From positions 446,136-510,135 of the forward strand of contig JBAZKE010000001.1 in the NCBI GenBank assembly GCA_041650915.1: a DNA stretch of 64,000 nucleotides. Direction: 5' to 3'. Position numbers and translations under genes: made by a program. The stretch comes from Patescibacteria group bacterium. Lineage in GTDB: Bacteria; Patescibacteriota; Patescibacteriia; UBA10025; JAHIVO01. This document shows positions 32,051 to 49,680 of the stretch, piece by piece (within the stretch, counting starts at the first letter, position 1; every line of letters begins with the position of its first letter). The notes under the pieces are model-generated. The model worked only from the letters and a program-made list of their open reading frames with translations, did no database searches and was not told the DNA's origin.

Positions 32051-32542
32051 ATATAGCTCTTTTTCAGCTCATAGCCATCGGGTAATGAAGAAACCGCGAA
32101 TACAGAACATTTTGTTGCCAAGGGGTGAATCTATGCCAGAATCAGATGAAAAGAAGGAAACGGCAGCAGTTGAGGAAACCTCAGCAGCCGGCGCTCAGAG
32201 CTCCTATGAAGCACTCAACAAACTCTGTTGTGATGATCACCTGCGCGGTGCATCCGGAACGCCGCCGCCGCCGTTTCCCACGTGGCCAGTGTGCTAACCT
32301 GCCTATAGAGGCGGAATGGGCACCAGAGCAGGCCGGGGAGACCTTTTGTGGGTTTCTCCGGCCACCTCATTTTTGTGGATAACTATTTGACTGTTTTTTT
32401 CTATGGTATATACTTCCAATCAATACGCCATGAAAAACGTCTGCTCAATACAATTGTTTAACCTCTTTCTCCTTGCGCACGCGGGGAGTGCTGGCGTATT
32501 GGTCGAGCGTTAGAACGTACGTATAGAGTAGCGACACGCCAG

Positions 32543-41744: not shown

Positions 41745-42400
41745 GATTCCGTTACTTCGACATTATTCTTGGTCTGTTCGTGGCTGTTTTGTTGATTTCG
41801 AACATCGTATCCACGAAAATAGTAGATTTCGGGCCGTTTTCGTTCGATGGCGGCACGTTGCTGTTTCCTCTCGCGTACATATTCGGCGATATACTCACCG
41901 AGGTATACGGTTACCGTGCTGCGCGCCGGGTGATCTGGACAGGCTTTTTCAGCGCACTGCTCATGTCAGCAGCCGTTATTGTAGTCGGAAAACTTCCGGC
42001 AGCAGCTGACTGGATGAATCAGGATGCGTACGATGCAGTGCTTGGATTGGCTCCGCGTATTGTAGTTGCGTCTCTTGTCGCGTACTTCGCTGGCGAGTTT
42101 TCAAATTCCTTCACGCTAGCGAAGATGAAAATTGCCACAAGAGGAAAATGGTTATGGATACGTACGATCGGTTCGACGGTTGTCGGAGAGGGGATCGATA
42201 CTGCGCTGTTCGTACTCATTGCATTTTGGGGAGTACTGCCAGTAGATTTATTGGTTTCAGTTTTAATTTCTAACTATGTTTTTAAAGTTGGCATGGAAGC
42301 ACTATTTACTCCAATTACGTATGGTGTTATAAAAAAGTTAAAGGATGATGAAGGAATTGACGTATACGATCGCAAAACAAATTTTAATCCTTTTAAATAA
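41741..42400 (+). CDS. yhhQ: queuosine precursor transporter (YhhQ/DUF165)
   Basis: Start moved to Met41 (MRFRYFDIILG), ATGA-coupled. LISNIVSTKIVDFGPFSFDGGTLLFPLAYIFGDILTEVYGY is the family core. Confidence 0.75.
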   Translation: MRFRYFDIILGLFVAVLLISNIVSTKIVDFGPFSFDGGTLLFPLAYIFGDILTEVYGYRAARRVIWTGFFSALLMSAAVIVVGKLPAAADWMNQDAYDAVLGLAPRIVVASLVAYFAGEFSNSFTLAKMKIATRGKWLWIRTIGSTVVGEGIDTALFVLIAFWGVLPVDLLVSVLISNYVFKVGMEALFTPITYGVIKKLKDDEGIDVYDRKTNFNPFK

Positions 42401-42444
42401 AATATTACAATTGCATTACTTATTATTATAATTAAAGAAAAAAT

Positions 42445-42645
42445 ATGAGTGTTGCCGATATATGTATAATGATTGGAGCAGTTGTAGGAAGCGCAGGGTT
42501 AATTATCTTCTTAGTAAGTTTAAAGAATAAAAAATTGCTTTTAAAAAAAATTGGATTAGCAATGTTGATAATTGGAATTTTATTTTTACTATTACCAATT
42601 GCTGGAAGTTTTTTTTCTTCAACTGAGGAGGTGACAGGCGCATAG
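42445..42645 (+). CDS. small hydrophobic protein in an AT-rich islet, hypothetical
   Basis: 66-aa ORF with 2 TM segments. GC is about 30%, far below the flanks. Confidence 0.3.
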   Translation: MSVADICIMIGAVVGSAGLIIFLVSLKNKKLLLKKIGLAMLIIGILFLLLPIAGSFFSSTEEVTGA

Positions 42646-42823
42646 AAACTTATCCACATTGACAGAGGATGCTGTAGAAATTAAGATAAAGTTGATTACA
42701 ATTGAATATCAGTAGTGTTACATCGAATGCTTTGCCAGCAGAACTGGGGCAAACGAAAACACACACAAAAGCCAATGCAAAAAAGTAAAAAAAGTGTATT
42801 GGTTTTTTTGACAACTTAATGGT

Positions 42824-42981
42824 GCAGTGTTAGGTGGGATCGCTTCCTTGGGAGATTGGTTTCAAGTTAGGCAGCAAGGAAAGTCAGAAGTTTCCCCATA
42901 ACCTTCAGCTTGGGACGGATTCCTTGGTTTAGCCAAGACTCGCGAGAGAAGTATGTTTGAAAGGGTCCCACCTAGCACTGC
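42824..42981 (+). ncRNA. candidate structured ncRNA (family unknown, perhaps 6S- or SRP-like). Strand not established
   Basis: A 16-bp terminal helix, GCAGTGTTAGGTGGGA/TCCCACCTAGCACTGC, contains one G.U pair and encloses about 125 nt with internal hairpins (GGAAA-N8-TTTCC and CTTGG-TTTAG-CCAAG). A TTGACA box lies at 42808. Confidence 0.3.
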
Positions 42982-43002
42982 GTTATTAAGTAACGAGCTC
43001 GT

Positions 43003-43188
43003 ATGGCGACAAAGACAAAAAAAGAGCTCCTGCAGGACATGCAGTTTCAGCAGATGAAGCGGTTCCTCGGAATACGGAGGGTCCGCAACTACTGCTCTGG
43101 CTGTGGTGAAGAAATTCACGAGCCAGTGTACTGCGGTGAGTGCAGCGATGAGATCGAGCGGATTAAGCTGCGCAGCAAATTCCGCTAA
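43003..43188 (+). CDS. small zinc-ribbon protein, hypothetical
   Basis: 61 aa with a CSGCGEE...CGECSDE double CxxC, basic at both ends. Confidence 0.4.
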   Translation: MATKTKKELLQDMQFQQMKRFLGIRRVRNYCSGCGEEIHEPVYCGECSDEIERIKLRSKFR

Positions 43189-43335
43189 CAGTCCGGATAC
43201 AGCGGGTTATTAAAAGGAGGTTCTCCGATGAGTACCTATGTGCTCATTTTTTGTTTTGTACCGGGTATCCACTTTTGAAGTCAGTTTAAAAATATGGTAT
43301 TGTTGCACTATACTCTTGCTTAATAATATCAGCGT

Positions 43336-47844: not shown

Positions 47845-47922
47845 ATTTTTTTCTTTAATAAATAATTTTTACATTATTAGTTAAAAGTACTCCCAATTTC
47901 ATTGATTTGTCAATAAAAAACT

Positions 47923-48030
47923 GGGGCGAAACTTCAAGAAGACTTGGGGCCCCTTCCCTGAAACAAGTGCACGGCCGGGGCGAAACTTCAAGAAGACTTG
48001 GGGCCCCTTCCCTGAAACAAGTGCACGGCC
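47923..48030. repeat. two perfect 54-bp tandem direct repeats (47923..47976 and 47977..48030), followed by a related degenerate unit to about 48105
   Basis: The unit is GGGGCGAAACTTCAAGAAGACTTGGGGCCCCTTCCCTGAAACAAGTGCACGGCC. The third unit ends in a perfect hairpin, CGAAAGTGCAA-CAGAG-TTGCACTTTCG (48079..48105). Confidence 0.85.
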
Positions 48031-48132
48031 GGGGCGAAAGTGCAACAGAGTTGACGGGTCCCTCGCCAGGTCTCGGGACGAAAGTGCAACAGAGTTGCAC
48101 TTTCGGTTATTATTCGGTATACTGAATATCGT

Positions 48133-48387
48133 ATGTATGTGGATAAAGTACAGGAGACAGTACGCGTTTTTGCGGACTTTTCAGGCACTCAGGTCAGGCC
48201 AGTGGCGTTTATTCGCTCCACAGGCCGGCGTTATGATATCAAGCGCGTTAATCTGGTGTACCAAAAAAGGGTGGGAGATAGGTACCACTGGTGTTTTGCG
48301 TGTTCGGACGAGGCAAATACGTATGTTTTGTTTTACGATCCGGAAAATTTGCAATGGACCTTGCGCGAGGTTCAAATGGAGGGTTGA
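48133..48387 (+). CDS. hypothetical 84-aa protein whose stop directly abuts the start of the Y-family polymerase gene
   Basis: Its TGA stop is immediately followed by the polymerase ATG. It contains HWCFAC. No family recognised. Confidence 0.5.
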   Translation: MYVDKVQETVRVFADFSGTQVRPVAFIRSTGRRYDIKRVNLVYQKRVGDRYHWCFACSDEANTYVLFYDPENLQWTLREVQMEG

Positions 48388-49680
48388 ATGAGCAGTGAGT
48401 TTTGGGAGTTGGGTAGCGATAACCGGGAAAGTATGCAAAGGGTAATGCTTCATTTTGACATGAATTCGTACTTCGCGTCCGTTGAACAACAGGCGAATCC
48501 GTTTTTGCGAGGAAAGCCGGTTGGCGTATGTTCCACGATGTCCCGCAGAGGATGCATTATTGCCTCGTCAAGAGAGGCAAAAGCGTTTGGCATTAAGACC
48601 GGCTGCCGGGTAAATGAAGCGCTGGAACTGTATCCACAAGTGAACCTCGTGGAAGTTGACCCGCCGAAGTACCGTTCAACCACCAAGCGCATTTTTTCCA
48701 TTTGTGCTGATTATACCGAGGATATTGAGGCGTATTCAATTGACGAGGCGTTCTTGGATTTGACTGGCTCTGTTGAGTCGTTTGATAGAGCTCTCGGGAT
48801 CGCGAAGACAATCCAGCGGCGCATCCGGGACGAGGTTGGGGAGTGGCTCACGTGTTCCATGGGCATTACGTGGACGCGCTGGCTTGCGAAATTCGCGAGC
48901 GATACCGCACCGAAAGGCGGGATCGTCGTTTTAACGAGAGAGAGCCTTTTCCAGTATTTGCAGGGCCGTGATTTGCAGGATGCGTGGGGAATCGCGGACG
49001 CGATGGAGGCGAGGCTCAATATACTCGGCATCCGTACGCTCGACCAGCTTGCCGTTTATCCGGTGCAAAATTTAATGTCTGTAATGGGTAAGGCGGGTTA
49101 CTATCTGTGGGCAAACGTCAACGGCATTGAACTCGGCGGCTTGGAGGTGAAGCGTCCGCCAAAGACCATCGGCCACAGCCACGTACTCAAGAAGCGCGAT
49201 TTGGACCGCACGTTTCACATGGCAGTGCTCATGCGCCTCGCTGAGCGGACCGGCAGGCGATTGCGCGGGCATGGGTATGAGGCGCACGGGTTCTACTACT
49301 ACGTGCAGTTTGATGAGCGGCCGAGCTGCGGCGGCAGCCGGCGCGTGCATCATCCGATCGTGACGACAAACCAGATTTTCAGGCTCGTATGGAAAGAGAT
49401 CGCTCCGGTGGTTGCAAAGGACAAGCCGGGCATGTTTGCGCTCGGGCTTTTCGGCTTGCAGCCGCGCGCCGACCAGCTCTCCCTGTTTCGGCACGAACGG
49501 CTTTCCCCCGAGCTGTCGAGAGCGATTGATGAGATCAATAGCCGTTACGGCGAGGAGACGATCGTGCAGGGGCCGCTTTTGAAGCTAGAAAAAATGCACG
49601 CCCCAGATCGGGTAGGATTCCGCAAGACCATGGAAGCTGAGTTCAGCGGAGCGGCCGAGCTGCAGTACGGGGGAGGGTAG
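48388..49680 (+). CDS. dinB: Y-family DNA polymerase (DinB/Pol IV-like)
   Basis: N-terminal HFDMNSYFASVEQQANPFLRGKPVGVC and SIDEAFLDLTG are catalytic motifs of the UmuC/DinB family. Confidence 0.8.
   Translation: MSSEFWELGSDNRESMQRVMLHFDMNSYFASVEQQANPFLRGKPVGVCSTMSRRGCIIASSREAKAFGIKTGCRVNEALELYPQVNLVEVDPPKYRSTTKRIFSICADYTEDIEAYSIDEAFLDLTGSVESFDRALGIAKTIQRRIRDEVGEWLTCSMGITWTRWLAKFASDTAPKGGIVVLTRESLFQYLQGRDLQDAWGIADAMEARLNILGIRTLDQLAVYPVQNLMSVMGKAGYYLWANVNGIELGGLEVKRPPKTIGHSHVLKKRDLDRTFHMAVLMRLAERTGRRLRGHGYEAHGFYYYVQFDERPSCGGSRRVHHPIVTTNQIFRLVWKEIAPVVAKDKPGMFALGLFGLQPRADQLSLFRHERLSPELSRAIDEINSRYGEETIVQGPLLKLEKMHAPDRVGFRKTMEAEFSGAAELQYGGG

Follow-up and report, generated by a model that had tools for sequence, protein, structure and literature searches.

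A covariation-supported rod-shaped RNA upstream of a zinc-ribbon mini-protein gene in Patescibacteria, a candidate cis-acting domain of the 5' leader

In a 64-kb stretch of a Patescibacteria group bacterium genome (GenBank assembly GCA_041650915.1, contig JBAZKE010000001.1, positions 446,136 to 510,135; the whole stretch is called the window here), two distant sequences of an AT-rich islet are complementary over a long distance. A first-pass annotation, made from the sequence alone, had proposed that they close a structured RNA of about 158 nt and had likened it to 6S or SRP RNAs without assigning it to a family. Is this element, which we call the rod, a real RNA, which strand carries it, and does it act by itself or as a part of a longer transcript? 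We found that a covariation-supported structured RNA on the + strand is real, and that it spans about 178 nt. Rather than a discrete RNA gene of some 160 nt, it is best regarded as one domain within a longer 5' leader, which is also conserved and precedes a gene for a 61-aa zinc-ribbon mini-protein.

A structured RNA on the + strand

The sequence GCAGTGTTAGGTGGGA at 42824-42839 pairs with TCCCACCTAGCACTGC at 42966-42981 over 16 positions, with T42830 opposite G42975 as the sole non-Watson-Crick position. The helix first described, 16 bp with one G·U pair, is therefore present, and it forms the core of a helix of 28 bp with zero mismatches, named P1 (42814-42841 / 42964-42991), which includes five G-U pairs. 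According to a repeat finder, the P1 arms are the top and longest inverted repeat (arms within 250 nt) of the entire window. Folded as RNA, the + strand reached -73.7 kcal/mol (z = -6.4, 0 of 200 shuffles equally good), and the - strand -51.7 kcal/mol (z = -3.7). The rod also appeared as a separate domain in the fold of the 347-nt full leader (z = -7.2). Both inner hairpins that had been pointed out are present as well: GGAAA (42878-82) and TTTCC (42891-95) are the apical arms of hairpin A, and CTTGG (42923-27) and CCAAG (42933-37) are the arms of hairpin B. The parts of the rod are as follows.

42814-42991, + strand: the rod RNA domain, made up of P1, a bulge, P2, P2b and a three-way junction that bears hairpins A and B (covariance model R1, 11 homologues)
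42814-42841, + strand: P1, 5' strand, containing 42824-42839 (sequence, folds, covariation)
42842-42854, + strand: 5' strands of P2 (42842-42850) and of P2b, GAG (42852-42854) (cofolding of inter-helix segments)
42856-42918, + strand: hairpin A, with the base UUGGU.UCAAG/CUUGAACCGG, a conserved internal loop GUWAGGYAGCAAGGAAA, the apical helix GGAAA/UUUCC and a variable loop
42923-42937, + strand: hairpin B, CUUGG/CCAAG with a variable loop
42939-42952, + strand: 3' strands of P2b, CUC (42939-42941), and of P2 (42943-42952) (cofolding)
42953-42963, + strand: one-sided bulge of the 3' strand between P2 and P1, 9-12 nt, consensus YU.UU.RAAAAG (alignments; unpaired in all folds)
42964-42991, + strand: P1, 3' strand, containing 42966-42981 (sequence, folds, covariation)

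Contigs of relatives were reached through the neighbouring DUF2207 protein, through the 61-aa protein encoded downstream, and by a pattern scan of metagenomes that added two loci. This gave 11 syntenic loci with a rod (the window, L005, L006, L007, L009, L011, L012, L015, L017, L021 and L022), the source being metagenome-assembled genomes of related Patescibacteria. RNAalifold consensus folding of 7 and then of 11 sequences yielded one and the same architecture, in which both inner hairpins were kept. Covariation was scored for a specified structure of 56 pairs on a MAFFT alignment of the 11 sequences. Standard pairs occupied 90.2% of the cells, compared with 38-52% in controls in which the partner was slid by 1-3 columns. 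Changes on both sides were observed in 24 of the 56 pairs, and 0 of 500 shuffles attained that number; the covariation in relatives that had been asked for as a check is thus there.

In P1, compensatory changes were seen in 16 of 27 pairs, and 93% of the cells are paired across the 11 sequences. The cells of P1 include 237 Watson-Crick pairs, 38 G-U or U-G pairs and only 5 A-C or C-A combinations. Since G-U greatly exceeds A-C (38:5), whereas a repeat maintained at the DNA level would show both equally, the counts identify the + strand RNA as the selected molecule. The earlier argument from a single wobble pair, that this is an RNA helix rather than a DNA inverted repeat, is borne out by these counts over the 11 homologues.

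The same data bear on whether the rod is a relic or domesticated miniature inverted-repeat transposable element (MITE), inserted in the manner of Correia or ERIC elements and without function at the RNA level. Correia/ERIC-type elements have terminal inverted repeats of about 26 bp, are transcribed into mRNAs and can be RNase III substrates. The rod resembles them in its size class (100-180 nt), its long terminal inverted repeats, its hairpins in an untranslated region (UTR) and its possible cleavage by RNase III. Its ends read TTAA...TTAA, as a target-site signature might, and both presence and absence are seen at an otherwise conserved site (described below). However, the TTAA bases belong to a conserved helix UUAAUA/UAUUAA in all homologues, and the locus that has no rod shows no clear empty site. 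The compensatory changes and the 38:5 excess indicate selection on the + strand RNA and not neutral decay of a DNA repeat. We built a covariance model, R1 (185 positions, 56 bp), which matched the window at 42813-42994 on the + strand with 157.6 bits; across the loci it scored 108-178 bits on the + strand and 27-47 bits on the reverse strand. In the 221 kb searched with R1 (the 64-kb window and about 157 kb of related loci), each locus yielded a single copy, so that the multiple copies by which a MITE might have been recognized did not appear. With filters off, the search of the window still gave only 42813-42994, and no second copy of the 16-mer was found in the window. Searches of phage and plasmid collections gave no similarity, and a pattern scan of viral contigs gave a chance coding match only. 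Finally, the rod keeps its orthologous position even between genomes in which protein identity has dropped to about 50%. We therefore consider a transposable element without RNA-level function very improbable.

Support is not equal along the rod. The topology of P2 and P2b was recovered by cofolding in 10 of 11 homologues; P2 varies from 5 to 11 bp among loci, 78% of its cells are paired in the alignment, and its distal pairs differ between loci in a compensatory manner. The helices of hairpin A (helices 3-5) are 86-91% paired, with mostly one-sided changes, and that of hairpin B (helix 6) is 94.5% paired, with changes from U-A to U-G only. The inner helices thus rest mostly on invariance and one-sided changes and are less well supported than P1 and P2. 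Conserved pentamers that are complementary to each other (UCAAG, CAAGG, CUUGA, CCUUG and CCAAG) permit alternative pairings. The unpaired nucleotides of the junction, bulge and internal loop are strongly conserved, in contrast to the apical loops, which in both hairpins differ in length as well as in sequence. In P1, the bulge and the junction, the sequence is more conserved than pairing by itself would require, which suggests recognition by a partner. No conserved ORF lies inside the rod, and no frame is open across the homologues. The islet was correctly described as AT-rich, and the rod itself holds no long ORF; the description of the islet as devoid of long ORFs needs amending, for a conserved 61-aa ORF begins at 43003 and a 66-aa ORF specific to the window occupies 42445-42645.

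We then compared the rod with known RNA families. No Rfam 15 family was matched, either at gathering score in the whole window or at E<=10 in the region and in six homologous loci, and this includes 6S RNA, signal recognition particle (SRP) RNA, transfer-messenger RNA (tmRNA), RNase P, riboswitches and ribozymes. The resemblance to 6S or SRP RNA that the first-pass annotation had suggested did not hold, given this result and the anatomy of a three-way junction. What fits a divergent 6S or SRP RNA is the length of about 180 nt and the outline of a closed rod. Moreover, one hairpin, placed 3' of the junction, is reminiscent of the 3'-bubble hairpins of 6S RNA, and the downstream mini-protein has a sub-threshold likeness to DksA/TraR proteins, which bind RNA polymerase. 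Escherichia coli 6S RNA (ssrS) is co-transcribed with ygfA, and the rod may likewise share a transcript with its downstream ORF. But neither RF00013, RF00169 nor any other Rfam model matched at E<=10 in seven loci, and the 5' strand leaves just 0-2 nt unpaired from P2b to hairpin A, so there is no two-sided central bubble resembling an open promoter. The apical loops are variable, unlike the conserved domain IV (GNRA-type tetraloop) of SRP RNA (RF00169/RF01854). A narrow clade and loss in one lineage are also unlike housekeeping RNAs. We regard a divergent 6S or SRP RNA as scarcely credible. As far as Rfam 15 and the literature searched show, the rod RNA is a new family, of a kind that is familiar, namely a structured bacterial leader or orphan non-coding RNA.

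Several other likenesses were followed and given up. A tmRNA was suggested by tag-like GCAAACGAAAAC and GGGGCAAACGAAAAC in the leader, but ARAGORN was negative in the window, L005 and L006, and the frame is not conserved. The AAAGGAG in P2 resembles a Shine-Dalgarno (SD) sequence, but is not followed by a conserved start codon, and the host seldom uses such motifs. Likenesses to the 16S 3' end (GGAUCACUUCUUU and AAGGUAGC), to a T-box core and to the TPP THI-box were either not conserved across homologues or without Rfam support.

Promoter, leader and mini-protein gene

Alignments of orthologous loci show that conservation begins about 165 nt upstream of the rod, and the following features were identified around it.

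42650-42658, + strand: DnaA-box consensus TTATCCACA, a perfect match that abuts the -35 hexamer (exact match to the known consensus only)
42659-42687, + strand: sigma-70-type promoter, TTGACA (42659-64), 17-nt spacer, TAAGAT (42682-87) (promoter scan, 10/12 matches)
42694-42762, + strand: 5' leader with conserved ACAATTGAATA (42698-42708) and hairpin L1 (42715-42762), base helix GUGUU/AACAC (individual folds, alignments)
42764-42810, + strand: terminator-like hairpin, with an A-tract, a CCAAUGC/GUAUUGG stem, a 15-nt A-rich loop and U7 (42803-42809) (consensus fold of 12 leaders, individual folds)
42995-43029, + strand: small hairpin with the start codon in its loop, GAGCUC (42995-43000) pairing with GAGCUC (43024-43029; Glu-Leu, codons 8-9) (fold, compensatory variants)
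43003-43188, + strand: gene for the 61-aa CxxC-x9-CxxC zinc-ribbon mini-protein (ORF list, homologues)
43227-43258, + strand: intrinsic-terminator-like hairpin with a T-run after the mini-ORF (scan)

In 12 orthologous loci the TTGAC of the -35 hexamer never varies, nor do the T, the A and the last T of the -10 hexamer, and the DnaA-box consensus TTATCCACA occupies the same position in 9 of them. Transcription would start near 42694. As to the promoter that had been supposed at 42808, the consensus TTGACA is indeed there (42808-42813), but it occurs only in the window and in its closest relative, L005, and the best -10 sequence, TAGGTG, matches at 2 of 6 positions. This candidate was rejected, because it is not conserved, has a poor -10 and would start transcription inside P1. 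The promoter at 42659, which lies 155 nt upstream of the rod, is the only conserved one able to yield an RNA with both P1 arms.

Downstream of the promoter, the leader carries a conserved segment ACAAYUGAAUA, followed by L1 and the terminator-like hairpin. L1 has a constant base (GUGUU/AACAC) and a variable top. It rests on individual folds, which gave the same architecture in 11 leaders, while the MAFFT/RNAalifold consensus of the leaders resolved the terminator-like hairpin only. The latter has an A-rich loop of 13-21 nt across loci, and its stem shows one compensatory change, G-C in L012 against A-U elsewhere. The leader occurs once per locus and contains no conserved small ORF or leader peptide, as the frames differ between loci.

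Two side observations concern this region. Upstream of the DnaA box, L005, L006 and L015 carry an inverted repeat, GGATAACTAAAA...TTTTAGTTATCC. The most conserved segment of the leader, AAACGAAAACAC (42751-42762), is similar to the first codons of the mini-ORF (AUG AAA ACG AAA ACA C) in L012 and L017, which may reflect a shared binding site or a compositional coincidence.

The position of the rod within this arrangement is constant. In all 11 rod-bearing loci it sits between the terminator-like hairpin of the leader and the mini-ORF, and the order of promoter, leader, rod and ORF on the + strand does not change. The rod begins 3-10 nt after the terminator-like hairpin in most loci. Its end and the AUG are 11-17 nt apart in ten loci, and the eleventh, L021, has 26 nt; in the window the mini-ORF starts 12 nt downstream. 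The spacer that follows the rod base-pairs with mini-ORF codons 8-9, and this start-codon hairpin varies in a compensatory way: CAGCUC/GAGCUG in L015, AAGCUC/GAGCUU in L017, CAAUAAUUU/GAAUUAUUG in L007 and CAACU/AGUUG in L018, while it is weak or absent in L011 and L012. Such compensatory changes indicate that the 3' flank of the rod and the ORF are on one RNA. We also saw covariation, in several loci, between the third position of the Leu codon and the base that begins the spacer arm.

The mini-protein itself is well conserved in a narrow range. Its 17 clusters are all from Patescibacteria and are 69-77% identical, compared with only about 50% for the DUF2207 proteins of the same genomes, and when 1.84 billion representatives were searched, just two clusters (50% identity) belonged to the family; a distant homologue, P0138, came from this search. 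Four of the 17 clusters (P0127, P0129, P0131 and P0134, from L011, L021 and others) carry public gene calls that extend the mini-ORF by about 27-29 codons upstream, into the 3' arm of P1. These overextended calls are annotation artefacts of an unrecognised RNA, and recognising the rod corrects them.

Sub-threshold matches relate the mini-protein to DksA/TraR zinc fingers: phrog_54 was matched at E = 9.5e-4, and PF01258 at E<=1 in 15 of 17 members (best 3e-5), though the window mini-protein gave no PF01258 match at E<=1. The C4 zinc-finger motif of DksA/TraR is CxxC-x17-CxxC. The Cys spacing of the mini-protein is x9 rather than x17, and generic zinc-ribbon models score equally well. An AlphaFold2 model predicted, at low confidence (predicted local distance difference test, pLDDT, 64), a layout of helix, zinc ribbon and helix, which would be compatible with the DksA/TraR family. 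The relation to DksA/TraR is a lead only. Sequence searches of the PDB with the mini-protein returned generic zinc-finger noise only.

The rod was absent from one lineage. L018, L019 and L020 represent one locus as three contigs, in which promoter, leader, terminator-like hairpin and mini-ORF are present without a rod. In a rough neighbour-joining tree of DUF2207 this locus is nested among rod-bearing lineages, which makes loss of the rod simpler than insertion, and this is a further point against a MITE. The rod is a dispensable accessory of the unit of leader and ORF and not its core, which fits an accessory cis element. As a side observation, the rod-less locus carries GGGAGGAA some 23 nt before its AUG, at the place that the rod occupies elsewhere, and this sequence could be what is left of the 5' arm of P1 (UUAGGUGGGA) or else a displaced SD-like element. 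Beyond this group, a scan of genome contigs returned Peregrinibacteria only, at 36-39% identity, and R1 gave no match in four Peregrinibacteria loci.

Possible action of the rod in cis or in trans

Taking into account that the rod lacks a promoter of its own, has a fixed position, is followed by a spacer that pairs with the ORF, folds independently, is a single-copy module and was lost in one lineage, we favour the reading that it is an autonomously folding, lineage-specific cis-acting domain of the roughly 310-nt 5' leader of the zinc-ribbon mRNA in a Kerfeldbacteria-like clade of Patescibacteria. We hold this reading to be about evenly poised between right and wrong. In 11 loci the rod is on the sense strand, downstream of the promoter and ahead of the start codon of a gene that is conserved along with it, an arrangement from which co-transcription may be expected.

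The following course of events is proposed from the sequence features. Transcription would start from the promoter at 42659-42687, flanked by the DnaA-box consensus, and produce a leader of about 115 nt that ends in the weak, AU-rich terminator-like hairpin with U7 (42764-42810), where a part of the polymerases may terminate. Those that read through would transcribe the rod, which would close on itself so that its two ends come together 11-17 nt before an SD-less start codon. The closed rod would then leave the leader and the start-codon hairpin adjacent, with the AUG displayed in a small hairpin loop. It would act in cis, most likely by docking a protein, which might be the mini-protein, in a feedback loop. 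Also or instead, it may be a processing site for RNase III, P1 being a long perfect duplex broken by an asymmetric bulge. Either step would set the translation or the stability of the mRNA.

Both kinds of step have parallels among known leaders. Autoregulatory protein-binding leaders include the ribosomal-protein leaders and the thrS operator. Like them, the rod is a covarying 5'-UTR domain with conserved unpaired nucleotides, placed before a small conserved protein that is probably nucleic-acid-binding; unlike them, it contains neither an SD sequence nor a start codon, and no mimicry of a known target RNA is demonstrable. The leaders of E. coli pnp and rnc and the T7 R1.1-type sites are RNase III-processed hairpins of about 20-30 bp. 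With these the rod shares a long near-perfect duplex in the 5' UTR, with an asymmetric bulge, just upstream of the coding region, and the 28-bp P1 exceeds the two turns (about 20 bp of uninterrupted duplex) of an RNase III stem. In contrast to these simple hairpins, which are unrelated to it in sequence, the rod has a duplex that closes a conserved three-way junction of about 110 nt.

Several points weigh against a cis-acting leader domain. The terminator-like hairpin and U7 lie directly upstream and, if efficient, would block synthesis of the rod. Known cis-regulators switch by means of helices that are much less stable than the 28-bp P1. Co-transcription, read-through of the terminator and the protein or RNase III step are inferred from sequence, the binding partner is hypothetical, and the model of the mini-protein is poor (pLDDT 64). 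The strong conservation of unpaired nucleotides would equally fit an RNA that acts in trans, and, as one lineage has lost the rod, the gene can persist without it.

The rod could instead be excised from the leader transcript, e.g., by RNase III in P1, and act in trans as a stand-alone small RNA (a sponge, a scaffold or a ribonucleoprotein partner), with the mini-ORF merely co-transcribed. A closed rod with a long terminal duplex does resemble processing stems and folds independently of its flanks. The combination of highly conserved junction, bulge and internal-loop nucleotides with variable apical loops would suit such an RNA, and so would the mean nucleotide identity of the rod of 62.5%, higher than the roughly 50% amino-acid identity of the neighbouring DUF2207 protein. 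On the other hand, the rod has neither promoter nor terminator of its own, it was lost in a nested lineage that keeps everything else, and the tight spacing of 11-17 nt to the AUG is not needed for action in trans. We consider this reading unlikely, though it deserves serious attention.

A 5'-UTR location shortly before a start codon, with conserved junction nucleotides, variable apical loops and complementary pentamers that allow alternative pairings, is also what a ligand-sensing riboswitch might show, the three-way junction being the aptamer that controls translation of the mini-protein. But P1 of 27-28 bp together with P2 is too stable for gating by a ligand, and no expression platform overlaps the start codon or the terminator, the terminator-like hairpin being upstream of the rod. 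In addition, the downstream gene is neither metabolic nor a transport gene, and no Rfam riboswitch matched. A riboswitch is thus distinctly improbable.

Apart from these readings, we note as a long shot that the rod RNA and a DksA/TraR-like 61-aa protein may form a small regulatory ribonucleoprotein, specific to this lineage of the candidate phyla radiation (CPR), expressed from a DnaA-box-controlled promoter and acting on RNA polymerase or the ribosome. If so, it would be a functional CPR counterpart of a global regulator of the 6S/DksA type.

Whether the rod acts as a cis-acting leader domain or otherwise, the locus is of interest for the biology of its hosts. Genomes of Patescibacteria/CPR are tiny, and the organisms are almost wholly uncultivated. 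Here an elaborate control region (a promoter with a DnaA box, an attenuator-like leader, the rod and a start-codon hairpin) precedes a very conserved mini-protein that is maybe DksA/TraR-like. Our literature search found no published description of the rod RNA, nor of any lineage-specific non-coding RNA in Patescibacteria/CPR. R1 could seed a new RNA family, and the rod RNA is a defined target for metatranscriptomics and in vitro work. Its narrow distribution limits the wider significance for now.

Genomic surroundings

The neighbouring genes are ordinary chromosomal ones (radical SAM, LigT, WecG, Vut_1, DUF2207, cyclophilin and SPOUT methylase), and PADLOC gave no matches to defence systems. 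The next relative of the DUF2207 protein is 77% identical, and the following ones are at about 52-54%, Kerfeldbacteria among them. The GC content at 42001-43000 is 0.378, versus about 0.51 elsewhere. A replication origin, for which a DnaA box in an AT-rich islet might be taken, was rejected, since the cumulative GC skew shows a monotonic rise across this part of the window. SD motifs precede 11 of 57 long ORFs, with a background of 10.6%, and translation initiation in the host is largely SD-independent. Many starts are preceded by ...ACT or ...GCT.

The 66-aa ORF at 42445-42645 in the AT-rich islet encodes two hydrophobic segments. It has no family match and is absent at that place in relatives, where L005 and L012 have a nitroreductase gene and the other loci have nothing.

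The DnaA-box consensus TTATCCACA has three exact copies in the 64 kb (42650-42658; 32374-32382, - strand; 48138-48146, - strand), compared with about 0.5 expected from a base-counting estimate. In addition, tandem direct repeats were found at 47920-48110, within the intergenic region 47865-48388. Read on the - strand, they consist of a unit of about 54-60 nt, ccccggccgtgcacttgtttcagggaaggggccccaagtcttcttgaagtttcg, in two copies and a 19-nt unit, caactctgttgcactttcg, also in two copies, and they adjoin a hairpin with 19-bp arms (48035-48105) and one exact DnaA box.

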